A stretch of 64,000 bases of DNA from an uncultured Candidatus Saccharibacteria bacterium. Its GTDB lineage: Bacteria; Patescibacteriota; UBA1384; JAMDBS01; CAYSHH01. The position numbers were made by a program, and so were the translations under genes. The DNA lies in contig CAYSHH010000005.1 of assembly GCA_964430945.1 (NCBI GenBank), positions 334-64,333 on the forward strand, in the 5' to 3' direction. The notes below the pieces were generated by a model. That model was not told where the DNA came from, searched no databases, and worked only from the letters and a program-made list of their open reading frames with translations. This document shows, piece by piece, positions 8,156 through 51,461 of this stretch. Position 1 is the first letter of the stretch. Each line of letters starts with the position of its first letter.

Positions 8156-8230
8156 TGGAGGGCCATGTGGGAATCGAACCCACGACACAGAGCTTAAAAG
8201 GCTCCTGCTCTACCTCTGAGCTAATGGCCC
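8156..8230 (-). tRNA. tRNA-Lys (anticodon UUU) with encoded CCA
   Basis: Reverse complement reads GGGCCATTAGCTCAGAGGTAGAGCAGGAGCCTTTTAAGCTCTGTGTCGTGGGTTCGATTCCCACATGGCCCTCCA. The anticodon loop is CTTTTAA, the T-loop is TTCGATT, and the acceptor stem is GGGCCAT/ATGGCCC. Confidence 0.9.
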
Positions 8231-37904: not shown

Positions 37905-39512
37905 ATGAATAAGATAATAAAAAAACTGAGCGGTCAGAACTCTATTCGTGGCGCGACCGTTATATTGATCGTGACACTATTTTTGTCAAATATTTTAGGA
38001 CTTATTCGTGATCATTATCTTGCCCAAAAGATACCCACGACTATCCTTGATGCTTACTACGCTGCATTCAGAATACCAGACTTAGTATTTAATATTGTAA
38101 TACTCGGAGCGATAACTGCTTCTTTTATACCAGTATTTACCAAATATATTACTAAAAATAAATTAAACGATGGTTGGCACGTCGTTAGTTCATTTATAAA
38201 TATATCAGCTGTTGTATTGGTCATATTTTTGATAATACTATATTTCCTAATGCCTTATATTATTCCTCTTCTGGTTCCAGATTTTGACATTGAAAAACAA
38301 GAACTAACTTTGAATTTATCTAGATTAATACTACTTTCTCCATTGTTTTTTACACTCTCGTATATATTTGGAGCAGTTCTAAATTCATTTAAAAGATTTT
38401 TTGTATATTCACTAGCGCCATTGGTTTACAATTTGTGTATCATAATTGCAACATTATTTTTTGCTGATAGCATTGGAGTATACGGGGTTGTTTACGGAGT
38501 ATTGATTGGTGCTTTTTTCCATATGCTTATACAAATGATACAAGTATTTAAGATTGGGTTTAAATACAAATTTGATTTTGACTACAAAAACCCCGATGTA
38601 AGGAAAATTTTTAAATTAATGATACCAAGAGCTGTCGGCTTAGGATCGAATCAAATTATGCTTGTAGTATACACGGCAATAGCATCGACTCTTGCTGCCG
38701 GTTCCGTAGCGATCTATAATCTGGCTGATAATATTCAGACTATGCCTACGGTCGTGTTTGGAATATCATTCGCTACAGCAATATTTCCTACACTTTCTGA
38801 GCACTTTAACCAAAAGAAACTATCTGAATTTAGCTCACATATACATAAATCTATTAAGGCAATTGCCTATACATTAATACCTTTGTCTATCATGATAATC
38901 CTTCTTAGAGCACAGATTGTAAGATTGATTTTAGGATCTGGATATTTTGGATGGAATGAGACAATACTTGCCTATAATACTCTTGCATTTTTTATGTTAT
39001 CTTTATTCTTTCAGGGACTTATTCCACTATTCGCAAGGGCTTTTTATGCGATTCATAACACGAAAACCCCAACAATTATCAGTGTACTGAGTGTAATAAT
39101 CGGTATTATAATGGCTTATATATTTGCACCAGCTATGGGTGTTACTGGGCTAGCTCTGGGGTTTTCGATAGCCAGTGTATTTAACGCATTTGTACTTTAT
39201 CTATACCTTAGAAAAAACGTATTTGAAATTAAAAACCAAGAAGGTGGACTTGTAGTCTATCTTATAAAAGTATGTTTTGCGGCTATTGCAATGGGAATTG
39301 TGATGCAAATATTTAAAATATATGGAGGAGAATATTTTGACCTGAGTCGTTTCTGGGGAGTATTTGGACAAACACTTGTAGCATTTACCATAGGCGTAGT
39401 CACATATTTCGGCATTTCAAAAATTATTAAAATCGAACAACAAGAAGAACTTGTAAAACTTATTAGGAGATATTTAAATCAAAATGGAAAAAGAGAAATC
39501 AATAAAGACTAA
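37905..39512 (+). CDS. murJ: lipid II flippase MurJ/MviN
   Basis: 535 aa, 14 TM helices, with MurJ-conserved N-terminal R/D residues. Confidence 0.85.
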   Translation: MNKIIKKLSGQNSIRGATVILIVTLFLSNILGLIRDHYLAQKIPTTILDAYYAAFRIPDLVFNIVILGAITASFIPVFTKYITKNKLNDGWHVVSSFINISAVVLVIFLIILYFLMPYIIPLLVPDFDIEKQELTLNLSRLILLSPLFFTLSYIFGAVLNSFKRFFVYSLAPLVYNLCIIIATLFFADSIGVYGVVYGVLIGAFFHMLIQMIQVFKIGFKYKFDFDYKNPDVRKIFKLMIPRAVGLGSNQIMLVVYTAIASTLAAGSVAIYNLADNIQTMPTVVFGISFATAIFPTLSEHFNQKKLSEFSSHIHKSIKAIAYTLIPLSIMIILLRAQIVRLILGSGYFGWNETILAYNTLAFFMLSLFFQGLIPLFARAFYAIHNTKTPTIISVLSVIIGIIMAYIFAPAMGVTGLALGFSIASVFNAFVLYLYLRKNVFEIKNQEGGLVVYLIKVCFAAIAMGIVMQIFKIYGGEYFDLSRFWGVFGQTLVAFTIGVVTYFGISKIIKIEQQEELVKLIRRYLNQNGKREINKD

Positions 39513-39663: not shown

Positions 39664-40950
39664 CTACCAATTCCATGGAAGAATATCTAGCACATCGAAA
39701 TTTTTAGAAGATGAACTTGGTATAGATGTTGGATTGATTGTTTGTGGGGAAGTTGAAGTAGAAGCAGGAGTAGGAGTAGAAACTTCTTTCGCGTTTTTTT
39801 CTTCTATAATTTCGGGCTCATCTTTGCCACGTGCTATAAATTCGGCTTTTACTATAAGGCGTTTATTATTAGTTCCTACTGGATAACAGGTCATAAGGGT
39901 TAGTGTATGTTTGTCTGTATTCTGTGCCAGTACGCTGACATCATTTGGATCAACGATGGTTTTTTCATATACTCGATAGATATAACCGTAATCGTCATAT
40001 CCAACACCAATTTCATCACCAACTTCAATCTGATCAAGATTTGTAAAAACAGTTTTGTAGCCTCCATCATCCCACCAGTAATATGATGAGTGGCCAGATA
40101 TAAACACATTTCCTTCGCCATCTTGGGCGCTCTCTCCTGGCCTAGAAGTTCCTTTGTAATGTACCACGCCATGTTTCAAATTTTCCATCATCGTGGCCTC
40201 ATCTACCGGGGAATCCCAAATAATAGGTGCTTTGACGTCTATTTTGGGTACCCATAGCTCATTATTTATAATTCCTCGTAATCCTAGTTCGTCTTTTGTT
40301 GGGCCTCTTTTGACTTCTTCTTTATCGTCGGTTGCTGGGGTATCGTATAATGTTACTGTCGACAAAAAAAGTAGATCTTCATTTGTACTGGCCGGGATAA
40401 TGGTTTGAACTTGTGGTTTTTCTCCAGTTCTTTCTTTGTAATTATATGATAATTTTTTCCACAATGCAGGAAAATTAAGAAATAGATATACAAATATAAA
40501 AGATCCAAGGACGAACAATGTCATTCGAAATACTAGTTTTATTGTATTGGTTCTTGGTTTTTTATCAATTGTCTGTTTGGTTTGCGTTGTATCGTCTGCA
40601 TGTTGCTGCGTTATATTTTCTTGATTAGTTTCTGGGGTATTAATCGGTTGTTTGGGCATTTGTGCATATTGCCTAGTGATTGACAATTTTTCATTATCGC
40701 TTAAAATTGGTTGTAAATTTTTTGTTTCATCATTTGTGACAGGTGGTCGATCAATTTCTAAGGATACATTTTTATAGCTGTCAGTTTTTGGAATAGATGA
40801 CGTTGAATTAATAACTTTTGTCTCGTTGTCTTTGGTGAGATCAAAAAGACTAACTTCTTCGTCATGTGTATCGTTTGGAGAAATATTTTCTAGATTAGAA
40901 GATTCTGAGTTGTTCGGTAAATTATTTTTATTACCACTAAAATTAGGCAT
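39664..40950 (-). CDS. sortase-family transpeptidase with a long low-complexity N-terminal region
   Basis: Catalytic TLMTC (Cys) and ISGHSS (His) motifs, and RLIVKA (Arg). One TM helix around residue 150. C-terminal S/T/P-rich tail ending PWNW. Confidence 0.8.
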   Translation of the reverse strand: MPNFSGNKNNLPNNSESSNLENISPNDTHDEEVSLFDLTKDNETKVINSTSSIPKTDSYKNVSLEIDRPPVTNDETKNLQPILSDNEKLSITRQYAQMPKQPINTPETNQENITQQHADDTTQTKQTIDKKPRTNTIKLVFRMTLFVLGSFIFVYLFLNFPALWKKLSYNYKERTGEKPQVQTIIPASTNEDLLFLSTVTLYDTPATDDKEEVKRGPTKDELGLRGIINNELWVPKIDVKAPIIWDSPVDEATMMENLKHGVVHYKGTSRPGESAQDGEGNVFISGHSSYYWWDDGGYKTVFTNLDQIEVGDEIGVGYDDYGYIYRVYEKTIVDPNDVSVLAQNTDKHTLTLMTCYPVGTNNKRLIVKAEFIARGKDEPEIIEEKNAKEVSTPTPASTSTSPQTINPTSIPSSSSKNFDVLDILPWNW

Positions 40951-41051: not shown

Positions 41052-42599
41052 CTATTTCTGATTGAATATCTCATCTCTAAACATAAAATACCCAACTGAG
41101 GCAATAATAGCCATAGCAATCAGAATATTAAACCAAAGCGATGCGCCCGTAGAAACAAGTTGAGAAATATTGGAGATATCCGACTGAGATGAACTGGATG
41201 ATGAAGGTATGTTTGTTGATGGAGACCCTGTAGTATTACTTGAGGATGACTGGTTACCAACTGTACTATTTGCTGTGTTGTTGCTTGAATTATTTTGATT
41301 TGTCGAATTTGAAGAAGAATCTGACCCTGCATTCGGATTGAATACCTTATAAGGTGCAATCTGTTTAGTAATATGATAAAGAGGTTTCACAGAATAATTC
41401 TTGTCATAAATAATATGAGAAATATTATTTTTATCAATGACCAATTGAATGTCACTATTTTTTGTCATATTGTCAATATTTTCAGTTTCTGTTTTCCAAG
41501 AACTACCATTAAAATACTTATATTTCATGCCTGAATTTTGGACGTATGCAATATGGGGATTTCCTGACATATCAAGCGCCATAGATACACCTCTATCAGT
41601 ATCGTAGATCGCATCATCAAGGACCAATTCATTTTTCCAACTACCATCTTTATTTGTCAAATAATAATAGTCTTGATGCCAAGCACCATTTTTTTTGGTC
41701 TGCTTAGATACCAATATATGCATATGATTATTTGAATCAACCAAGGGATTACCAATCATCAGTAAACTCCCCATATCAACATCTGTTGAATTTGTTGCAA
41801 GCTTAAAGTCATTATAATCAAACACCTGAGGTTTCCAATTATCAGCAGCAGAATATATAGCAAAAGCTTCGCTTGAAAATTGATTTCCAGTATTCAAATA
41901 ATAATCGGCAATGTCAATATTATCTGAATGATCAACTGTCATTCTGGCAGCCGAGCTAGCTTCTACATTATCTAGAATGTTTTTTGTTTTCCATGACCCG
42001 TTATCTTCATACAATATGGAATATTTTCTCGTTTTGCTATTGTAAAGAAGCGCATATAATTCATTTTTTGAGTTGACCTGCATTTGATTATTGGATCTAT
42101 TTACCAAACTCTCAGATTCTCCGATAGGAATATCTTCATTAGTCCAATTTTTCCCGTCATAAAAATAATGCTTAATACTAGTAGCTTGATAGTCTTGCGT
42201 TAAAATATGTAGATTACCTTCCTGATCAACAATAGGCGCGAATCTTTGTGTATTGCTTGCCGGACTAACCAATGGTACTTCCTTACGAAGCCAACCAGAA
42301 GAATTTCTCGTCAAATAATCTGCCGTAATTGATACCGACGAGGAATCGGTTGCGGAGACATTTACGTCTCGGCAAACGAGATTTAACACATTATTTGGAT
42401 TTACATTAAATGTTTTAGTATCAAGAAAATAACAATCGCCCACATTTTCAGATGTCCATTGGTCGGAAGATGCAACATCAGCACTAATTTTTGAGTTTTC
42501 GTTTTGAAAATAATAGACAACTATTGCGATAGAAAGAAAAACAATAGAAATCAATGCAAGAAACAGTAGCCTATTTTTTATACTAATTTGCTTGAACAT
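41052..42599 (-). CDS. secreted beta-propeller-like repeat protein with a C-terminal LVSTG sorting signal
   Basis: N-terminal signal/anchor. Repeated DG(S/K)xWKxE Asp-box-like motifs. S/N-rich linker, then QLVSTGASLWFNILIAMAIIASVGYFMFRDE. Confidence 0.65.
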   Translation of the reverse strand: MFKQISIKNRLLFLALISIVFLSIAIVVYYFQNENSKISADVASSDQWTSENVGDCYFLDTKTFNVNPNNVLNLVCRDVNVSATDSSSVSITADYLTRNSSGWLRKEVPLVSPASNTQRFAPIVDQEGNLHILTQDYQATSIKHYFYDGKNWTNEDIPIGESESLVNRSNNQMQVNSKNELYALLYNSKTRKYSILYEDNGSWKTKNILDNVEASSAARMTVDHSDNIDIADYYLNTGNQFSSEAFAIYSAADNWKPQVFDYNDFKLATNSTDVDMGSLLMIGNPLVDSNNHMHILVSKQTKKNGAWHQDYYYLTNKDGSWKNELVLDDAIYDTDRGVSMALDMSGNPHIAYVQNSGMKYKYFNGSSWKTETENIDNMTKNSDIQLVIDKNNISHIIYDKNYSVKPLYHITKQIAPYKVFNPNAGSDSSSNSTNQNNSSNNTANSTVGNQSSSSNTTGSPSTNIPSSSSSSQSDISNISQLVSTGASLWFNILIAMAIIASVGYFMFRDEIFNQK

Positions 42600-42609
42600 T
42601 TTACTCCTA

Positions 42610-43926
42610 TTATTTACCGTTTATTTCTTTTCTAAACATAAAGTAACCAATACCACCGATTAAGAGTAATGCAAGAAGTATATTAAACCAAAGTGATGCG
42701 CCGGTAGATACCAATTTGGTAACTTTTGTTATTGGTGTATCCGAATTAGAGTTGTCGATTACTGGTGTAGTACAAGCACTTACCATTGTCTCCATCTGAT
42801 CAGAAGCCTTTGATTCAACACCTGCACTATCGTGGGCAATTACATAATAACAAGCTGTTACATTGCAGTCTTCACTACTTTGGATATCGGATGTTTGATC
42901 TAGAGTATAAGATGTTTGATCTGTAGAAGTGATGTATGTTCCAGAACAATTATAAATATCATATCCACTAGCATCATCTACTTTATTCCAAGAAATAGTT
43001 ACATTTTGACCATCATACTCTATTTGTGTATTTTCTGGTTTCTTCGTGCTTATATCAGTAACTATATTTTTGCATTGGCCAGTTGTGACCGTAACGGTGT
43101 CTGAAGGATTGGATCCATAGCCCTGTTCATTTATTGCTGTAACATGAAAGGAATAATCTGTCTCACATTTTAGTCCGCTAATAGTATAGGAATTGGAATC
43201 GGCTGTGGCGATCCAGGAAACTTCGTCAGCGTTATAAATACCATAACTAGTTGCAGTGGTTACAGCATCCCAAGAGAGTTTAACGCTGTCGCTAGTTACT
43301 TCGGAAGATTTAAGATTGGTTGGCGGATTGGGTTTATTTATTGTAGGACTTGGGCTAGGAGTCGGAGTCGGGATTGCGGTCGTAGCCGTAGTCGTAGGAG
43401 TAGTAGTGGTAGGAACCGAAGTCGTAGTTGTAGGGGCAGTTGTAGTTGGGGTTGATATCGTACATTGAGTAGCTCTTTTTTCTCCTAATAGAGTATTTTT
43501 GCCAGTAGAAGTAACGTGCCCAATTACTCTGTAATTCCACCCATGTGGATCGTGTGGACCAAAACTACAATAAGTCGACGTTTGGCGATAACAGTTCGGA
43601 CATGTTCCACCATATATCTGATTGCAAGTTTGATCAGTAGGACTAATATTTACCCAACCGTTGTCTGTATTTGCATATGATGTTCCAGCATATACTTTGA
43701 ATGAATAAAGGTCATAATTGGTAGCTCCTTTTACATAGGTCAATTTATCAATTTGTTTATTATCAGATCGAGAACAAACGGAATCAACTGTAAGGATTGA
43801 AACTGGTACTGGGTTAGCCCAGATACTTATACGTCCTGTTTGATTGCCCCATACTAAAAACGCAAACCCAAGAATCACAATCGCGATAAGTATTAGCATG
43901 GTAATTTTAAAACCTTTTTTTGTCAT
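42610..43926 (-). CDS. surface protein with Cys-rich module, Thr/Pro linker, two FN3-like domains and a C-terminal LVSTG sorting signal
   Basis: FN3-like LSWDAV...YGIYN...GLKCETDYSFHVTAIN. C-terminus KLVSTGASLWFNILLALLLIGGIGYFMFRKE. N-terminal motif WGNQTGRISIWAN. Confidence 0.65.
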   Translation of the reverse strand: MTKKGFKITMLILIAIVILGFAFLVWGNQTGRISIWANPVPVSILTVDSVCSRSDNKQIDKLTYVKGATNYDLYSFKVYAGTSYANTDNGWVNISPTDQTCNQIYGGTCPNCYRQTSTYCSFGPHDPHGWNYRVIGHVTSTGKNTLLGEKRATQCTISTPTTTAPTTTTSVPTTTTPTTTATTAIPTPTPSPSPTINKPNPPTNLKSSEVTSDSVKLSWDAVTTATSYGIYNADEVSWIATADSNSYTISGLKCETDYSFHVTAINEQGYGSNPSDTVTVTTGQCKNIVTDISTKKPENTQIEYDGQNVTISWNKVDDASGYDIYNCSGTYITSTDQTSYTLDQTSDIQSSEDCNVTACYYVIAHDSAGVESKASDQMETMVSACTTPVIDNSNSDTPITKVTKLVSTGASLWFNILLALLLIGGIGYFMFRKEINGK

Positions 43927-44300
43927 AGCCCTCCTAAAAATATATTATTTAATACATAAATCCCAAACAAATACGATGCAAGGTTACATAAAAATGAAGA
44001 AATAAAAGATTGTTTCCAATCTATTTTTAAGAAAAAATAGTAAAATATTGCTTCTACGATAAATACTATAATCTCTGAAGATACCACATATACCATATAA
44101 TTCTCACTAAATACTACCGGAAAAATAAACCAGACATACGGAAGTGTAGCAGCACTAATTAATCCAGCAAGAACGATCATTGCAGTAGGAACCTTCTCCT
44201 TACCAAGCCTGTATAGATACCGAACAGTAAGGAGAAGTATAATCATCTCAATAATTATTGTAAAAGATAGATAGATGAAAAATATATATTCGTATTTCAT
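43923..44300 (-). CDS. small polytopic membrane protein embedded in the sortase locus
   Basis: 125 aa with 4 TM helices. 4-nt overlap with the downstream gene. Confidence 0.5.
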   Translation of the reverse strand: MKYEYIFFIYLSFTIIIEMIILLLTVRYLYRLGKEKVPTAMIVLAGLISAATLPYVWFIFPVVFSENYMVYVVSSEIIVFIVEAIFYYFFLKIDWKQSFISSFLCNLASYLFGIYVLNNIFLGGL

Positions 44301-44305
44301 ATTTT

Positions 44306-46099
44306 TTAAGAATTATTGTGAATTTCGCGTCTGAAGATTATATAACCGACACAACCGGTTATAACTAGTGCAAGAAGAATATTAAACCACAAAGATGCAC
44401 CGGTAGATACCAATGAAGTGACTGTATTGGAAACCGTGGCACAACTCTCCGTATCAACATTTATTTTATCTGAAGGTTGTGATTGACTCGAATCGTTGTG
44501 AGCAACTACATAATAACAAAGTGTTTGCCCGCAAGATAAACCACTAAAGTTTGCGGAAGTACTGTCAGTTGAATGTATATAATCTCCGTTACAATTGTAA
44601 ATATCGTAACCAGTCGCACCTTCTACGGCATCCCAGGAAAGTGTCGCTAGGCCATCACCATGATATGTGAGAGATATATTCTCTGGCTTTTCGTTAGAAA
44701 TATCAGAACCTGTTTGACAAGCAGTGGTTGTCGCAGATGCTGTGCTAGATGGATTAGATTCTTCATTTCCAATACCAGCCGTTACATAATAGCTATATTC
44801 TGTGTTGCATTTGAGTCCTTTAGCAGTCCATGTAGTATTTGATGATTCTACTGTTGCGATCAAAATATTGTTGTCTGCATTGTAGATATTGTAGTATCCC
44901 TCACCTGATTCTAGAGCCGCGTCCCAAGTAAGCTTAATTTCAGTATTGCTAGTTCCTTGAGCAGTGACATTTGTTGGAGCAGTAGGTGTAGAGATAGTAT
45001 ATGAAGGTGTCGGAGAAACATTAGAACATCCAAGACTTGGCGCATCAACAGTATCAGTTACTGATGAGTCAAAGTAGTTAATAGCTTTGTATTTTACCCC
45101 GTTGATACTTGGATATTGATGATTGGTTGTGCTACCGGATGCTGCATGGAGAGGAATAAAACCATTAGTATTCGGTGATTCCATATATAATTCTATTGTG
45201 GCTGAATTTTCGCCAGTCCAACTAAGATAATTAATTTGCTCACCAATATCACCGACGCATTCTGATCTATCAAGACTTAAATCAATTGAATAATTTTGAG
45301 TAGGTGTAGTTGTAGTTGGAGTAGTTGTGGTTGGGGTAGTTGTAGTTGGAGTAGTTGTGGTTGGGGTAGCAGAGCCATAGCATCCTTTTTGAGTGTCACA
45401 TTGTGGTCTACTTGGGTCACTACATGTATAAGGACCATCCCATTTATAACAACCGTTTACTAATCTGCAAGATTGATATTGAGTATTATTTATACATTTA
45501 ATATTAAGTGGGTAATTTGAATCTCCTTGAGTACATTCATTGGTGCAAGTAGTGCTTGTTGGATTGGTGGTTGACGTTGTAGTTGGATTGGTGCTAGAGC
45601 AAGCACTAGTAGACGTGGCTTCTGCAATTACATGCGTGCATGATTCGCTACCAGCACACTGCGTCCTTCCAAATTGATATCCGACTACTCTGTATTTGGT
45701 AGATTTTGGAGTACCTATATCAACACTGTATCGAAAACTAGAATTATTTATAGTCGTATAATTCTTAGTTTGTCCAACCCATTTACCATTTTCATATTTT
45801 TCCAACCAATATTCGCTTGGTTTTGGAACAATAGTTGTATAATTGACCAATATATTATCGGCTTGATTTGTTCCATTTTGCCTACAGTATGAAGTTATAC
45901 ATATACTACCATAAGTACCAGATTTACATATTGGATTGGTAACTGTATCTGCATTTGCCCACAATCCAATCCTACCCGTCTGATTGGCCCAAATGAGTAT
46001 TGATAGACTAACCAAAATAATTCCTAAAATTATTAGGAATATTGTTTTAGATCTTTTGTTGGCAAAAACATCTTTATGCCAAACAGAGTTCTTATTCAT
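44306..46099 (-). CDS. surface protein, paralog of 42610..43926
   Basis: N-terminal motif WANQTGRIGLWAN. Cys-rich module. FN3-like domains (LTWDAA...YNIYN; LSWDAVEGATGYDIYNC). C-terminus SLVSTGASLWFNILLALVITGCVGYIIFRRE. RBS AAGGAGGG upstream. Confidence 0.65.
   Translation of the reverse strand: MNKNSVWHKDVFANKRSKTIFLIILGIILVSLSILIWANQTGRIGLWANADTVTNPICKSGTYGSICITSYCRQNGTNQADNILVNYTTIVPKPSEYWLEKYENGKWVGQTKNYTTINNSSFRYSVDIGTPKSTKYRVVGYQFGRTQCAGSESCTHVIAEATSTSACSSTNPTTTSTTNPTSTTCTNECTQGDSNYPLNIKCINNTQYQSCRLVNGCYKWDGPYTCSDPSRPQCDTQKGCYGSATPTTTTPTTTTPTTTTPTTTTPTQNYSIDLSLDRSECVGDIGEQINYLSWTGENSATIELYMESPNTNGFIPLHAASGSTTNHQYPSINGVKYKAINYFDSSVTDTVDAPSLGCSNVSPTPSYTISTPTAPTNVTAQGTSNTEIKLTWDAALESGEGYYNIYNADNNILIATVESSNTTWTAKGLKCNTEYSYYVTAGIGNEESNPSSTASATTTACQTGSDISNEKPENISLTYHGDGLATLSWDAVEGATGYDIYNCNGDYIHSTDSTSANFSGLSCGQTLCYYVVAHNDSSQSQPSDKINVDTESCATVSNTVTSLVSTGASLWFNILLALVITGCVGYIIFRREIHNNS
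45301..45366. repeat. 30-bp tandem repeat (about 2.2 copies), coding
   Basis: gtagttgtagttggagtagttgtggttgggg x2, encoding (TTTTP)n on the minus strand. Confidence 0.7.
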
Positions 46100-46430: not shown

Positions 46431-47474
46431 TTACTCCGCATATCCAACGAAACGAGCCCGCACTATCAAACGTCGTTCGCTTGTGCCTACCGGGACACAT
46501 GTCATTAAAGTAACAATGTGTTCGCTAGTGTCTTGTTTTACCACATCAACATTTTCTGGTGCAACCTCTGTTTTATCATAAACTTCATAGACATAAACTT
46601 TATCATTATATCCGATAACTACCTTGTCTCCGACATTTATATACGGAAGTGTAGCAAATATACTATGGTATTGTCCTGGATCCCAACTATAATACGATGA
46701 ATGTCCCGATATAAATACATTCCCAGTATTATTTTCCAATCCCTCTCCAGGCTTAGCTGTGCCAAGATAATGAGCTACCCCGTTTTGTAGGCTAGCAAGC
46801 ATACTATTTTCGTCAACAGATGAATCCCAAACTATCGGACATTGTATTCCAAGCGAGGGTACGGATAGTTGATTATTTAGAGTATTTTGAGCAACATAAG
46901 TGCTTTCGTCAGAAGTACTAAAATTTTCTTCTTGGGGAGCTTCTTCAGTTACCACTTCGTCTTTTTTCTCTTCTGGAAATTCAACGACCTTGGGGTCTGG
47001 ATATTCAATAATAATTGGCAAAAATAATAGACCATCATCGTTTTTATAAAAAACAGCGACTTTGGCAGTCTTTTGATCATTAGAGTATTCAATGACATCT
47101 GAATCATTCTCCTGAAATGTGGCTCTAGCGCTCAAGGCATCAAAATTTACAACAATATATATTACTATAAGTGATAAGATCATTGTAATAAAAATTATCG
47201 CAACAGTTTTCAATAAACTAGATTTTTTATACTTCTCATCTTTTTTATTGTGATTTGTTGTCGTAGAACTAGTATTGATGATTTCTTGAACTGGTGCTCT
47301 ATCTTTATGATTAGAAATCGATACCGACTTATCAAAATTTATCTTTGGTTTTGACGGAATAAAAACAGGCTTATTCTTGTGTTTTGTAGGGTTAGGTCTC
47401 AACACTTCAGCATCAACAACATCGGTGTTGATATCGTGTGGTTTTTCTATTTTTGGAGAATATTTATATTCCAT
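46431..47474 (-). CDS. sortase-family transpeptidase (second copy)
   Basis: ISGHSS, TLMTC and RLIVRA motifs. N-terminal TM helix. Confidence 0.8.
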   Translation of the reverse strand: MEYKYSPKIEKPHDINTDVVDAEVLRPNPTKHKNKPVFIPSKPKINFDKSVSISNHKDRAPVQEIINTSSTTTNHNKKDEKYKKSSLLKTVAIIFITMILSLIVIYIVVNFDALSARATFQENDSDVIEYSNDQKTAKVAVFYKNDDGLLFLPIIIEYPDPKVVEFPEEKKDEVVTEEAPQEENFSTSDESTYVAQNTLNNQLSVPSLGIQCPIVWDSSVDENSMLASLQNGVAHYLGTAKPGEGLENNTGNVFISGHSSYYSWDPGQYHSIFATLPYINVGDKVVIGYNDKVYVYEVYDKTEVAPENVDVVKQDTSEHIVTLMTCVPVGTSERRLIVRARFVGYAE

Positions 47475-47557
47475 ATTAGTATTATATATTTTTTTAATTT
47501 ATTAATCTAAATATATATCTGTAAAACATGTTTATAATATGGTACAATCAGATAATT

Positions 47558-49315
47558 ATGAATCCTATAAATATTCGAAATTTTTGTATTATTGCTCATG
47601 TAGATCACGGGAAATCAACTTTAGCTGATAGAATGCTTGAGATTACAAATACCGTAGAAAAGAAAAAGATGAAATCTCAATATCTTGATCAAATGGACCT
47701 AGAACGTGAGAGAGGAATTACGATTAAATTGCAGCCAGTAAGAATGTTTTATGATAATAATGGTGAAAATTATATTTTTAATTTGATTGATACTCCAGGA
47801 CATGTTGATTTTTCTTACGAGGTTTCTCGAAGCTTGGCAGCTGTAGAAGGCGCAATTCTTTTAGTTGATGCTACAAAGGGAATACAAGCACAAACTTTGG
47901 CTAATTTATATCAAGCAATTGATCAAAATTTAGATATTATTCCGGTAATCAATAAAATTGATCTTCCAAATGCTCAGATTGAAGAGACGAAAGATGAAAT
48001 AAATAAATTATTGGGTACAAAAAAAGAAGATATTCTGGAAATATCTGCAAAGACTGGTGAAAATGTGGAAACTATTTTTCCGGAAATTATAAAAAACGTA
48101 AGACCTCCAAAACTTTGTGACGATCAACCATTAAAAGCTTTGATATTTGATTCGCTTTACGACGAATATAGAGGGGTAGTGGCATACATTAAAGTATTGG
48201 AAGGAAAATTATCATCAAACGAAAAAATTCATCTTATTGCGTCATCCGAAGACGATAGGGCACTTGAAGTTGGGTATTTTTCACCACAATATACGAAAAA
48301 AGATACATTGGGATCTGGTGAAATTGGTTATGTAATAACTGGTTTTAAGGATGTTAGATTCTGTAAAGTTGGCGATACAATTATTAGTTCAAGTCATTAC
48401 TTGGAAAGCTTGAAATCTAAAAATCCAGTAACTCCCCTCAAGGGATATAAAAAAGTAAAATCAATGGTTTTTGCTCAATTTTATTCTCGTAATGGCGAAG
48501 TTGACAAGCTAAGAGACGCACTAGATAAGCTTTCATTGAATGATTCTGCACTTAGCTTTGAGGCAACAAATTCACATGTATTCGGTATGGGATTCGAATG
48601 TGGGTTTTTAGGACTACTTCATCTTGAGATAATCAAAGAAAGACTCCTAAGAGAATATGGTCTTGATCTTATTATTACCTCCCCTAGGGTAGAGTACAAA
48701 ATAGAAAAAATTAGCAACAAAACTATTTACTCTGAGCCGTGGGTAAAGCTTGAAGTTATTACTCCACAAAAATACATTGGCGCGATAATTGATATCACTA
48801 TAAGTATAAGAGGACAATATAGGGCTACTGAATATATCGGTGATCGAGCGGTAATAACGTTTGACGCACCATTGGCTAACATTGTGACCAATTATTATGA
48901 TCGACTAAAAAGCGTATCAGCAGGTTATGCATCATTAAATTATGATTTTTTAGAGTATAGAGAAGAAGATCTTGTTAAAATGGATATTCTCATCGCTGGA
49001 GATAAATATGAGAACTTATCTCAAATAGTTCACAGAAATGAACTGCTGCCACGTGCAAAAAATGTTGTTAAAAAATTAAAAGATCTTTTACCTAAACAAA
49101 CATTTAAGGTTATAATTCAGGCCGCACATGGAGGAAAGGTTGTTGCTAGAGAAAATATTGGAGCACTCAAAAAAGATGTTACAGGACATTTATATGGTGG
49201 CGATGTATCTCGAAAAAATAAATTATTGAAAAAACAAGCAGCGGGCAAAAAAAGAATGCAAATGATGGGTAAAGTAGATATCCCGACAGACGTATTTATA
49301 AAGTTATTGAAATAA
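47558..49315 (+). CDS. lepA: elongation factor 4 (LepA)
   Basis: AHVDHGKSTL, DTPGHVDF and NKIDL motifs plus the LepA-specific C-terminal domain. Start set at MNPINIRNF. Confidence 0.93.
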   Translation: MNPINIRNFCIIAHVDHGKSTLADRMLEITNTVEKKKMKSQYLDQMDLERERGITIKLQPVRMFYDNNGENYIFNLIDTPGHVDFSYEVSRSLAAVEGAILLVDATKGIQAQTLANLYQAIDQNLDIIPVINKIDLPNAQIEETKDEINKLLGTKKEDILEISAKTGENVETIFPEIIKNVRPPKLCDDQPLKALIFDSLYDEYRGVVAYIKVLEGKLSSNEKIHLIASSEDDRALEVGYFSPQYTKKDTLGSGEIGYVITGFKDVRFCKVGDTIISSSHYLESLKSKNPVTPLKGYKKVKSMVFAQFYSRNGEVDKLRDALDKLSLNDSALSFEATNSHVFGMGFECGFLGLLHLEIIKERLLREYGLDLIITSPRVEYKIEKISNKTIYSEPWVKLEVITPQKYIGAIIDITISIRGQYRATEYIGDRAVITFDAPLANIVTNYYDRLKSVSAGYASLNYDFLEYREEDLVKMDILIAGDKYENLSQIVHRNELLPRAKNVVKKLKDLLPKQTFKVIIQAAHGGKVVARENIGALKKDVTGHLYGGDVSRKNKLLKKQAAGKKRMQMMGKVDIPTDVFIKLLK

Positions 49316-49455: not shown

Positions 49456-49989
49456 ATGAAAAAAAGACAAACTAAAAAAATAATACTTGAAAAATCACTT
49501 GATATTTTTATTAAAAATTCTTTTTTCAGCGTGTCAATGCAAGATTTGGCTAATGCCCTCGACATCAAAAAATCATTAATCTATTATTATTTTGAAAGTA
49601 AATCTAAACTTTATCAGGAAGCGGTTTTTCAATATTTAGATAATATTGTAAATAAATTTGAAATAATATTTTCAAACAAATTTACTGCCTCGGAAAAGAT
49701 AAGTCAACTTTCGGAGCTTTATCTCAAAGAACTTGAAAAAGAGCATTCAATATTATCAGGAAATATTGACTACAATAAACTAGATAAATCAATTATGAAT
49801 GTAATTAGTAAAACACAAAAAAGAATCGTTGGCTATTTCGAGTCAATAATTTCAGAGGGTATTAAAAAGGGTGAATTTAAAAACCTTGACCCTAAAAAAT
49901 CGTCTTTAGCTATGATTGGATATATAGAAAAAAATAAACAATATAATAACAAACTGGAAAAGAACTGGTTTGATTTTTTATTAAAATAA
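49456..49989 (+). CDS. TetR-family transcriptional regulator
   Basis: N-terminal HTH LEKSLDIFIKNSFFSVSMQDLANALDIKKSLIYYYFESKSKLY. Confidence 0.8.
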   Translation: MKKRQTKKIILEKSLDIFIKNSFFSVSMQDLANALDIKKSLIYYYFESKSKLYQEAVFQYLDNIVNKFEIIFSNKFTASEKISQLSELYLKELEKEHSILSGNIDYNKLDKSIMNVISKTQKRIVGYFESIISEGIKKGEFKNLDPKKSSLAMIGYIEKNKQYNNKLEKNWFDFLLK

Positions 49990-50003
49990 TGAAGGGAATT
50001 TAA

Positions 50004-51461
50004 ATGATCAAAGAAACTACAGATTTTATTGGCGATGCTTTTGAGGGAATAAAAAGTGGAACCAAGGCTTTTACCACTAAACAAACATTAAACCTCGCAA
50101 AAGGTATTATTAAACATGCCTCATATGAGCAAACAGCTCAACTTCTAAAGTTACTAGAGGTAGTTACGCCAGAAAATAGAAAAGGCAATATCAAAGGGAT
50201 ACAAGAAGATTTTGCCAATAAGGGTCCTTGGGCGCTTATGCTTAAAAAACTTATGTCAGAAACAAACCATGATTCTCTGGAAGGTTTTTTTGATAACTTT
50301 GTTGTAAACCAATGTATTTTGGCTGAAGATATTCGTCAGAAATTTGCCAAGAAGGAAGGTTTTACTCCACCATGGTTTTTAGCTATTTCTCCATCTATGC
50401 GTTGTAATCTCAGATGCGTCGGTTGTTATGCTGCGGAATATTCCAAAAAAGATGATTTGCCATATGAAGATTATGACAGACTAATAACTCAATCCAAGAA
50501 AAATGGTATTTACTTTTTTGTAATTCTTGGAGGTGAGCCATTTTTTCATGAAGATAATTATAAAATATTTAGAAAGCATAAAGATTGTTACTTCTTAGTT
50601 TATACTAATGGAACATTGTTAACAGAAAAAAAGATCCAGGAAATTAAGAAATTAAGAAATGTTGCCCCTGCAATATCCATTGAAGGATTTGAAAAAGAAA
50701 CTGCCGAAAGAAGAGGTGAAAAAGTTTGGCAAAAGATCATGGATGCGATGGATGTAATGAAAAAAGAAAAAATGTTGTTCGGGTTTTCAGCAACTTATAC
50801 CAAAAAAAATGCCTCTGTAATTGCTAGCAATAAATTTATTGATTTTATGATAGAGAAAGGATGCTCCTTCGGCTGGGTATTCCAATATATCCCAATTGGC
50901 AAAAAACCGGACATTACTCTTATGGCCACCCCAGAACAAAGAGAAAAGCTAAGAGTCTTTTCACAAAAAGTTCACAAGGAAAAACCAATCTTTATGGCAG
51001 ATTTTTGGAACGATTCACCATATGTTGGCGGATGTATGGCTGGTGGATCATTGTATTTACATATAAATGTAAAAGGCCAAGTTGAACCATGCGTGTTTGT
51101 ACAATTTGCAACTGACAATATCAAAGAGAAATCACTTACCGAATGTTTAAAATCTCCATTTTTTAAGATGCTTCGCGACAAGGGGCAAAGCATTAGATCA
51201 CCTCATAGAAAATCTGATAATATGCTGAGACCCTGCATGATTATAGACAATCCAGAGGTTTTACATGAATGTATTGACGCTTGTGATGCCAAAGCCTCAT
51301 ATGAAAGTGGTGAGCAAATTACTTCTTATAAAGATAATAAGGCTTATAAATATCTCAAAGATGATTATTCTAAAAAATGGGGTAAAATTGCAGATAAAAC
51401 TTGGGACAAGGAAAAGAAAAACTTTAAATATGACTGTGGATATTGTAATAAATGCAAATAG
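50004..51461 (+). CDS. radical SAM / SPASM-domain protein with a ~130-aa N-terminal extension
   Basis: CNLRCVGCY (CxxxCxxC at residues 134/138/141). C-terminal GGCMAGG...PC plus extra Cys clusters (CIDACD; CGYCNKC) typical of SPASM/twitch domains. Confidence 0.8.
   Translation: MIKETTDFIGDAFEGIKSGTKAFTTKQTLNLAKGIIKHASYEQTAQLLKLLEVVTPENRKGNIKGIQEDFANKGPWALMLKKLMSETNHDSLEGFFDNFVVNQCILAEDIRQKFAKKEGFTPPWFLAISPSMRCNLRCVGCYAAEYSKKDDLPYEDYDRLITQSKKNGIYFFVILGGEPFFHEDNYKIFRKHKDCYFLVYTNGTLLTEKKIQEIKKLRNVAPAISIEGFEKETAERRGEKVWQKIMDAMDVMKKEKMLFGFSATYTKKNASVIASNKFIDFMIEKGCSFGWVFQYIPIGKKPDITLMATPEQREKLRVFSQKVHKEKPIFMADFWNDSPYVGGCMAGGSLYLHINVKGQVEPCVFVQFATDNIKEKSLTECLKSPFFKMLRDKGQSIRSPHRKSDNMLRPCMIIDNPEVLHECIDACDAKASYESGEQITSYKDNKAYKYLKDDYSKKWGKIADKTWDKEKKNFKYDCGYCNKCK

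Follow-up and report, generated by a model that had tools for sequence, protein, structure and literature searches.

A probable lineage-specific sorting signal and a conserved signal-peptide region in the cargo proteins of a Patescibacteria sortase locus

In Gram-positive bacteria, the LPXTG cell-wall sorting signal read by class A "housekeeping" sortases (TIGR01167/PF00746) has three parts at the extreme C-terminus, namely a pentapeptide that closes with T-G, then a hydrophobic helix some 20 residues long, then a cluster of basic residues. It is borne by cargo proteins with an N-terminal signal peptide and a sortase gene adjacent to their own. Dedicated sortase/signal pairs are also known, such as class E with LAXTG, class D with LPNTA/LPxTATN, SrtB with NPQTN, or the QVPTGV class. 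In Firmicutes, the signal peptides of LPXTG proteins can carry the motifs YSIRK-G/S and KxYKxGKxW, which sit in the n/h-region, ahead of the hydrophobic core or inside it. Bacteria of the candidate phyla radiation (CPR), or Patescibacteria, are mostly uncultured epibionts, and their surface proteins are likely to be tools for attachment to the host. Here we describe a locus from one such organism, an uncultured, ultra-small Candidatus Saccharibacteria bacterium, in which three cargo proteins encoded between two sortase genes end in the same extended tail. The locus lies within a stretch of 64,000 nucleotides (contig CAYSHH010000005.1, positions 334 to 64,333), referred to below as the window. 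We consider it probable that the shared C-terminus is an LPXTG-type cell-wall sorting signal, in a form specific to one Patescibacteria lineage and paired with a conserved region of the signal peptide.

Sortases have been found to be enriched in CPR (PMC6744442). In the literature on LVSTG, or on sortases in connection with CPR, Patescibacteria or Saccharibacteria, we found no description of a CPR sorting signal. A preprint on the Pam pilus of CPR (10.64898/2026.03.03.709456) describes donor-strand-exchange pili with a protein, PamR, that has two FN3 domains and a C-terminal transmembrane (TM) helix; sortase is not involved in that system.

The tail described here has the three parts of the LPXTG signal, and its cargo proteins likewise have a signal peptide and an adjacent sortase gene. 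It differs from LPXTG in having Val or Ile in place of Pro, and in the conservation of ~15 further positions, e.g., L+7, W+8, F+9, N+10, A+14, Y+23 and R+27, numbered from the first Leu of the pentapeptide as L0. Moreover, acidic residues come after the basic cluster (FRKEI), and the sortases match no curated class. Like the dedicated pairs, as far as their descriptions go, the system combines a lineage- or locus-specific sortase with a variant pentapeptide, non-Pro at position 2 as in class E LAXTG, and with substrates that are encoded alongside. Unlike those pairs, its sortases and tails score below the cut-offs of the corresponding class and signal models, and where they serve one or two proteins, it serves ~80 cargo families of diverse kinds throughout a clade.

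The shared tail within and beyond the locus

On the minus strand, six genes follow one another in the same orientation, in the order sortase 2, cargo 3, a gene for a small protein with four TM helices (4-TM), cargo 2, cargo 1 and sortase 1. Cargo 1 (515 residues; 41052..42599) is an open reading frame (ORF) with no Pfam match, while cargo 2 (438 residues; 42610..43926) and cargo 3 (597 residues; 44306..46099) both match Pfam fn3, with E 2.6e-13 and 1.1e-12, respectively. The sorting tails are LVSTGASLWFNILIAMAIIASVGYFMFRDEIFNQK for cargo 1 (41055..41159), LVSTGASLWFNILLALLLIGGIGYFMFRKEINGK for cargo 2 (42613..42714) and LVSTGASLWFNILLALVITGCVGYIIFRREIHNNS for cargo 3 (44309..44413), all on the minus strand. 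The earlier note on this DNA had quoted these three C-terminal sequences, and the minus-strand ORFs were found to end exactly as quoted. Thirteen consecutive residues, LVSTGASLWFNIL, are identical in all three tails. Beyond this run they also share A+14, G+22, Y+23, F+26, R+27, E+29 and I+30 (GY..FR.EI), so that the common C-terminus is 34–35 residues long in total. It is made up of L-(V/I)-S-T-G, a helix with conserved ends (G-x-S-L-W-F-N-I-L-I-A at one end and G-Y-F-x-F-R at the other) and a short charged end. Within the 64 kb of the window, neither such a tail nor any LPXTG-like one was found on another ORF.

An identity of 13 residues cannot arise by chance in three proteins whose bodies align at ~21%. 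When the three genes were compared over these residues, synonymous differences were seen at 8 of the 13 identical codons. The DNA has thus diverged while the peptide was held constant. When the tails were scanned with signal models, the isolated cargo 2 tail gave 16.1 bits with TIGR01167 LPXTG_anchor, for which the cut-off is 15.9, in an alignment that begins at the T of LVSTG. With sorting_LPXTATN and LAXTG_small_WW the scores were 11 and 14, below the cut-offs of 32 and 65, respectively.

Homologues of sortase 1 that are 45–62% identical to it lie on contigs with the same neighbourhood and with cargo bearing the same kind of tail. Tail-bearing syntenic loci of relatives, with sortases 40–60% identical, are L002/L086, L003, L005, L088, L089, L095 and L097. 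The tail is SLVSTGGSLWINILIAL…GYFMFRKEI in L003; SLVSTGASLWFNIIIAI…GYYMFRRNI, together with a variant VISSGASLWFNLL…, in L005; RLISTGSALWFNIFLAL… in L002/L086; LVSTGSNLWINILIAL… in L088; LVSTGASLWFNILIAL… in L089; LVKTGSALWLNILIAL… in L095; and LVSTG(Q/A)VLWFNIL… in L097. In cargo orthologues that are only 38–50% identical overall the tail is kept; the cargo 1 orthologue of L005, at 38% identity, has LVSTGASLWFNI unchanged. One cargo protein of L005 (3499-4590, the same as P0165) has VISSG in place of LVSTG, with an intact ASLWFNLL…GYFMFRKK; here conservation is stronger in the helix after the pentapeptide than in the pentapeptide itself.

A census of the tail was then made with a profile of the three window tails, run with plain HMMER against 1.84 billion cluster representatives. 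It returned 85 proteins at E<=1e-3, 26 of them at E<=1e-10, the self-matches of the window tails being at E 1e-24. In ~80 of the 85 the match lay at the extreme C-terminus, which followed the TG by 25–40 residues (median 29). No two of the tail-bearing clusters exceed 50% identity, and in alignment with cargo 1 the bodies reach only 14–43%. An fn3 domain is present in 33 of 68 bodies; others have Kelch propellers, SLH, PKD, Kazal, peptidase or M60_C domains. The exact extended form is rare in one other collection, since STG[AGS][SA]LW[FI]N occurred at only 5 loci among 241 million JGI metagenome records.

Among 80 tails from these profile-selected hits, the pentapeptide residues were kept at L0 in 78, at V/I+1 in 75, at S+2 in 70, at T+3 in 76 and at G+4 in all 80. 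The start of the helix was comparable (L+7 70, W+8 77, F+9 60, N+10 79, A+14 73), and L+7, W+8, N+10 and A+14 are conserved as strongly as the L, T and G of the pentapeptide. At the helix end, Y+23 and R+27 were each found in 64 tails, and an R or K followed the hydrophobic stretch at +27/+28 in 75. The pentapeptide was LVSTG in 51 tails, LISTG in 14 and LASTG in 3; Pro never occurred at position 2. Mean pairwise identity was 0.84 for the pentapeptide, 0.61 for the ten residues after G, 0.30 for the middle of the helix and 0.48 for YFMFR, as compared with 0.12 for the 28 residues upstream.

It is clear that purifying selection acts on the segment after the TG. The earlier note had asked whether the ASLWFNIL-type extension is conserved outside the locus, and it is so both in the syntenic relatives and in ~80 clusters; the opposite outcome, other sorting-signal proteins with unconserved sequence after the TG, was not seen in the relatives. 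The very recent paralogy that the note had offered as one explanation is contradicted by the synonymous codon differences, the unrelated body of cargo 1 and the presence of the tail on ~80 clusters elsewhere. The sequence after the TG is most likely conserved for function, and not through gene youth. The idea that the downstream segment is itself recognized fits the strong selection on L+7, W+8, N+10 and A+14, and recognition is what we infer from it. To say of LPXTG signals, as the note did, that conservation is confined to the pentapeptide simplifies matters, although the degree of conservation seen here is indeed unusual.

The extension has its limits among more distant Patescibacteria. Sampling by sortase gave 80 GTDB loci, all of them from Patescibacteria (Berkelbacteria, Kazan, Saccharibacteria-labelled, Peregrinibacteria and others); these relatives were found with an alignment as query, a single-sequence query having given no close relative. 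Adjacent cargo was present in 11 of the 80. Near-versions of the extension occur in Berkelbacteria, namely LVSTGGVLWVNLL (L019) and LVSTGANLWVTLL (L011). Other loci keep the class of pentapeptide and have their own sequence after the TG: LVSTGSNSV… (L013), LVSTG(E/Q)NPLV… (L014, L020), LIATGFLD… (L012, L016) and LIATGANP… (L023). As these distant loci keep the pentapeptide class only, L-(V/I)-(S/A)-T-G is the motif at the level of the sortase family, and G-x-x-L-W-x-N is a clade-specific flavour of the tail helix.

The N-terminal motif and the cargo bodies

All three cargo proteins have an N-terminal hydrophobic segment with a Kyte-Doolittle mean above 3. The motif W(G/A)NQTGRI..WAN, which the earlier note had pointed out in the two FN3 proteins, is present in both and stands directly after this segment: WGNQTGRISIWAN in cargo 2 (43813-43851, minus strand) and WANQTGRIGLWAN in cargo 3 (45953-45991, minus strand). 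The corresponding signal/anchor region of cargo 1 is YYFQNENSKISA (42477-42515, minus strand), followed by D. We surveyed 65 full-length tail-bearing representatives with an N-terminal hydrophobic segment. The motif W-A-(N/Y)-Q-T-G-(K/R)-(I/V)-(T/S)-I-(W/F)-(G/A), here called type A, was found in 35 of them. A related form, Y-x-Y-Q-x-x-x-L-x-I-S-A-D, of which YYFQNENSKISAD in cargo 1 is an example, was found in ~25 (17 that fit the type-B pattern, plus ~8 recognized by eye among 13 unclassified sequences), and the remaining ~6 have ordinary signal peptides or a lipobox. Conversely, in ~1.2 Mb of related loci, 10 of 10 complete ORFs with the type-A motif were also tail-bearing.

Distant cargo proteins whose tails lack LWFN start with Y-(G/A)-(Q/E)-R-(T/S)-G-(K/R/L)-(L/I)-(T/S)-I-F-(G/A), e.g., Y-G-Q-R-T-G-K-L-T-I-F-G. 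Hence the N-terminal motif is more widely distributed than the extension of the tail. Its last residues are I-x-(A/G), followed by S, N, D or A, which resembles the -3/-1 site of signal peptidase I (IWA before N, IFG before S, ISA before D). Judged from these sequences, the N-terminal motif would be a conserved region that follows the hydrophobic core of a long signal peptide. It had no match among Pfam and NCBIfam models, and the YSIRK models PF04650 and TIGR01168 gave no match at E<=10 on the N-terminal 49–60 residues. As with YSIRK-G/S and KxYKxGKxW, a motif of the signal peptide co-occurs with a C-terminal sortase signal on unrelated surface proteins, which implies a common route of secretion and sorting. 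The present motif differs from those in its position, which is after the hydrophobic core and up to the predicted cleavage site, and sequence similarity to them is absent.

The bodies that lie between the two conserved ends are of different kinds. Cargo 1 consists of the N-terminal signal/anchor, a body, an S/N-rich disordered linker and the sorting tail. In the AlphaFold2 (AF2) model (predicted template modelling score 0.64), residues 49-413 form repeated four-strand blades, and Foldseek matched the body to propeller lectins, sialidases and glycoside hydrolases; the body is therefore predicted to be an all-beta, multi-blade propeller. In cargo 2 the signal/anchor is followed by an N-terminal domain that contains Cys, then by a T/P-rich linker, a pair of FN3 domains and the tail. 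Cargo 3 is built likewise, with a Cys-rich N-terminal region and a T/P linker. Cargo 2 and cargo 3 are 45% identical over the C-terminal 255 residues (two FN3 domains and tail) and are also alike in the N-terminal signal region, whereas the match between cargo 1 and cargo 3 is limited to the tail and the low-complexity linker ahead of it. The earlier description of three paralogous cargo proteins thus holds for cargo 2 and cargo 3 in these regions, but not for cargo 1, whose body is unrelated. The tail and the N-terminal region are shared modules on different bodies. We propose that the cargo are surface proteins of a binding type, with FN3 stalks and beta-propellers here and Kelch, SLH and PKD domains elsewhere.

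The sortases, the proposed route and its rivals

Sortase 1 (428 residues; 39664..40950, minus strand; Pfam Sortase, E 2.6e-28) has a disordered N-terminal region, one TM helix, a linker, a catalytic domain and an S/T/P-rich C-terminus. His287, Cys355 and Arg364, which correspond to the catalytic His, Cys (TLxTC-like) and Arg of the sortase superfamily (PF04203), are invariant in 36 homologues. Its catalytic domain was modelled by AF2 with a predicted local distance difference test (pLDDT) above 85, the TM helix was confident, and the fold matched solved sortases with probability 1.0. Sortase 2 (347 residues; 46431..47474, minus strand; Pfam Sortase, E 2.7e-23) is 34% identical to sortase 1 and has the motifs GHSSYYSWDPG and LMTCVP; its TM helix ends in IYIVVNFDA. 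The second sortase flanking the cargo of L003 is of the sortase 2 subtype, of which P0031 is another member. The flanking genes are sortases with an intact His-Cys-Arg triad and the sortase fold.

With the NCBIfam models of classes C, D and E, scores of 64–81 bits were obtained, all below the cut-offs of 140–165: 80.5 against 160 for class C (NF033745), 76 against 165 for class D, and 68.2 and 64.4 against 160 for class E (NF033747). By sequence the nearest PDB entries are of classes C and D (~E 1e-12), and by fold the PDB structures of classes C, D, E and A matched almost equally well. Neither the DP[FWY] lid motif nor a hydrophobic C-terminus is present in the two sortases, and the pre-catalytic linker of sortase 1 is unstructured in the AF2 model (pLDDT <50). 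A segment of the TM-to-catalytic linker, LLFLSTV in sortase 1 (residues 193-199, 40354-40374) and LLFLPII in sortase 2 (47010-47030), is conserved and resembles the substrate motif LVSTG. A role of LLFLSTV as a pseudo-substrate lid was considered and found no support, the segment having a pLDDT below 50.

The TM helix of sortase 1 has a conserved end, FIFVYLFLNFPA (40465-40500, minus strand), and the pattern F-(V/I)-Y-x-F-L-(N/T)-F-P-A is unusually well conserved, in sortases down to 32% identity. In loci with LWFN tails the TM end is FL(N/T)(F/A)PA, while in loci with other tails it is (I/V)(V/S/T)GP(S/T). The sortase TM end and the start of the tail helix are both conserved and would both lie in the outer leaflet, which suggests helix-helix recognition in the membrane. 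The mechanism that we favour, tentatively and as possible though somewhat improbable, is that L-W-F-N, the portion of the cargo helix in the outer leaflet, would be recognized within the membrane by the TM end of the sortase (F-L-N/T-F-P-A). If so, sortase specificity would extend into the bilayer, and such loci might supply protein engineering with orthogonal sortase/tag pairs. More doubtful is the wider proposal that in this clade substrates are set by a two-ended, largely membrane-embedded code and not by a pentapeptide, with G-x-S-L-W-F-N docking on the sortase TM end, perhaps through Asn-Asn or Asn-Thr interhelical pairing, and a co-evolving N-terminal W-A-x-Q-T-G-K/R-Φ-x-Φ-W/F-G holding the precursor by its other end at that same site. 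Such a code would amount to a dedicated, secretion-coupled sorting route beside the lipid II flippase.

In the route that we propose, the precursors would be exported via Sec by an N-terminal signal peptide with a long hydrophobic core, after which the conserved region (W/Y)-(A/G)-x-Q-T-G-(K/R)-Φ-x-Φ-(W/F)-(G/A) leads to a site like that of signal peptidase I. The C-terminal helix would then retain the protein in the membrane, where a flanking His-Cys-Arg sortase may cleave between T and G and pass the protein to a nucleophile of the envelope, most likely lipid II. A sortase gene always stands beside murJ, the gene of the lipid II flippase, and this fits lipid II as the presumed acceptor.

The 4-TM protein (125 residues; 43923..44300, minus strand) was examined as a further candidate for recognition of the tail, a role that the earlier note had suggested for it. 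Its start lies 5 nucleotides after cargo 3, and its stop overlaps the start of cargo 2 by 4 nucleotides. The ORF had no match to Pfam or NCBIfam, even at E<=10, and its family has only 6 clusters among 5.8 billion proteins (members include P0122-P0126). The invariant residues are the intramembrane E18, E76 and E83 and a TLPYVWF..P motif; His is absent. A homologue with 45% identity lies beside the cargo genes of L088 (6932-7291), and none is present in the cargo loci L003, L005, L087, L089, L095 and L097. Another has genes for CbiC, LptF/G and prepilin peptidase as its neighbours; it lies in a genome of another kind, outside a sortase context. With its absence from most related loci and its occurrence outside sortase contexts, a role as recognizer is unlikely, and the 4-TM protein was rejected as a general reader of the tail. 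The 4-TM gene is accessory and is no conserved part of the sorting system.

Other explanations of the shared tail were weighed against this route. That the two sortases, as class-C-like enzymes, polymerize the cargo into a fibre or pilus, in which the propeller would be the tip adhesin while the FN3 proteins form shaft and base, would explain the shared tail, as all subunits must use the same polymerase. Class C pilus sortases are the best sequence and fold matches of sortase 1, and, as in class C pilus loci, several tightly packed cargo genes lie between two sortases, a two-sortase layout that recurs in L003. We nevertheless regard a pilus as unlikely: the class C score reaches only about half of its cut-off, classes A, D and E are nearly equal by fold, the lid and a C-terminal TM anchor are absent, and the linker is unstructured. 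Moreover, the cargo lack the YPK pilin motif, the E-box and the CnaB/SpaA pilin domains, the tail is borne by ~80 unrelated cargo types, and the number of cargo genes per locus varies from 0 to 3, the sortase often being a lone one at the housekeeping site beside murJ. Less likely again is a plain membrane anchor left uncut by sortase, or a tail handled by some other enzyme such as the co-transcribed 4-TM protein, with LVSTG…LWFN as a juxtamembrane motif for that partner. The translational coupling of the 4-TM gene to cargo 2, the homologue beside the L088 cargo, the three invariant intramembrane Glu residues, reminiscent of some intramembrane enzymes, and the cargo of L087 with no sortase nearby speak for it. 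They are opposed by the scarcity of the 4-TM family described above, its absence from most cargo loci and its occurrence outside sortase contexts, by the sortase that is adjacent in 9 of 10 tail-bearing locus types, and by the full tripartite layout of a sortase signal with an invariant G and a near-invariant T.

Sortase processing at both ends of the cargo appears very improbable to us. Here the N-terminal x-Q-T-G-(K/R) would be a second site, whose exposed Gly attacks the LVST-acyl enzyme of another subunit to give head-to-tail, peptide-linked chains, with proteins lacking an N-terminal TG as the chain tips. T-G does occur in both motifs, each time at the outer face of a TM helix, the Gly of the N-terminal motif is kept in 34 of 35 type-A sequences, loci often pair one TG-less cargo with TG-bearing FN3 cargo, and some loci have two sortases. 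But T-G is all that the N-terminal motif and L-V-S-T-G have in common, roughly one type-A sequence in four has another residue in place of the T, many of the type-B sequences have no TG, and many loci have a single sortase; the canonical -3/-1 site of signal peptidase I at the end of the motif is the simpler explanation. We know of no precedent for two-ended sortase processing. To recent duplication or gene conversion among the three genes, without functional meaning, we assign next to no probability. In its favour, the genes adjoin one another, and the FN3 halves of cargo 2 and cargo 3 are truly paralogous; the explanation is refuted by the synonymous differences at 8 of the 13 codons and the ~80 tail-bearing clusters elsewhere, and it is at odds with the unrelated body of cargo 1 and with a tail that persists in orthologues of low overall identity.

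Several observations weigh against the sorting-signal reading itself. The pentapeptide has no Pro at position 2, unlike LPXTG. The tails of cargo 1 and cargo 3 gave no match with TIGR01167, nor did the full-length proteins, and Pfam Gram_pos_anchor (PF00746) matched neither the cargo proteins nor their tails. The sortases are treated as unclassified, with all curated class models below cut-off and neither sequence nor fold singling out one class. The statistics on tail conservation involve some circularity, since it was the tail profile that selected the hits; the existence of ~80 tail-bearing clusters does not. The covariation between sortase TM end and tail comes from ~15 loci and is confounded by phylogeny, and the signal-peptidase site was assigned by the -3/-1 rule. 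In L087 (5646-10108), three tail-bearing genes (192, 366 and 732 residues), interrupted by an ORF of 145 residues that has neither signal nor tail, have no sortase within 10 kb. Adjacency of a sortase is thus not obligatory, and the signal would also work on genes far from one; among 10 independent tail-bearing locus types, L087 is the exception. Finally, the cleavage between T and G, the acceptor and a cross-bridge-type peptidoglycan in this organism are all things that we infer.

With these points taken together, the tail is a real and functionally constrained module, not a product of chance, which most likely serves an unclassified family of Patescibacteria sortases and marks a diverse surface proteome. 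As the standard LPXTG models largely miss such tails, profiles of the LVSTG-LWFN tail and of the N-terminal motif would expose this covalently anchored surface proteome in metagenomes; the tail profile is useful for the annotation of CPR surface proteins.

The cassette and its neighbours

The spacing between cargo 3, the 4-TM gene, cargo 2 and cargo 1 is 5, -4 and 10 nucleotides, and from these gaps the four genes are probably co-transcribed. A scan of the window for promoters and terminators gave counts near the expectation from shuffled sequence in this AT-rich DNA, and no signal peptidase I box motifs were found in the window. The only RNA gene detected in it by Rfam and tRNA scans was tRNA-Lys (UUU), at 8156-8230 on the minus strand.

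The cassette has two conserved flanks. On one side lepA (47528..49315, plus strand) is divergent from sortase 2; on the other, murJ (37905..39512, plus strand), a homologue of the lipid II flippase that is followed by gltX, is convergent with sortase 1. LepA Pfam domains were found at the syntenic position in L003, L095, L096 and L097, and PF03023 at that of murJ in L001-L005 and L095-L097. The order lepA, 0–3 cargo genes, sortase, murJ, gltX is kept in L001-L005, L089 and L095-L097, with L096 having zero cargo genes between lepA and the sortase. In every related locus examined, a gene of the sortase 1 type adjoins murJ, with gltX next. The sortase-1-type gene behaves like a housekeeping sortase with a variable cargo cassette.

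Some minor features of these loci may be noted. Sortase 1 ends in DILPWNW (39667-39687) after its S/T/P-rich linker, and homologues end in LLPWNN, LLPWRW or LLPWL (including L089, L096 and L097), giving the consensus LPWxx in 36 homologues; this extension is absent from sortase 2. To our knowledge, no function has been described for a conserved C-terminal LPW motif on a sortase. An ORF of 54–56 residues was called between, or overlapping, sortase and murJ in several loci. Beside lepA, a TetR-family gene is followed by a radical SAM/SPASM gene in the window (49456-51461), in L003 (784-4133) and in L095 (3653-5647), and the L003 counterpart encodes two SPASM enzymes. The TetR and radical SAM/SPASM genes may form a peptide-modification cassette.

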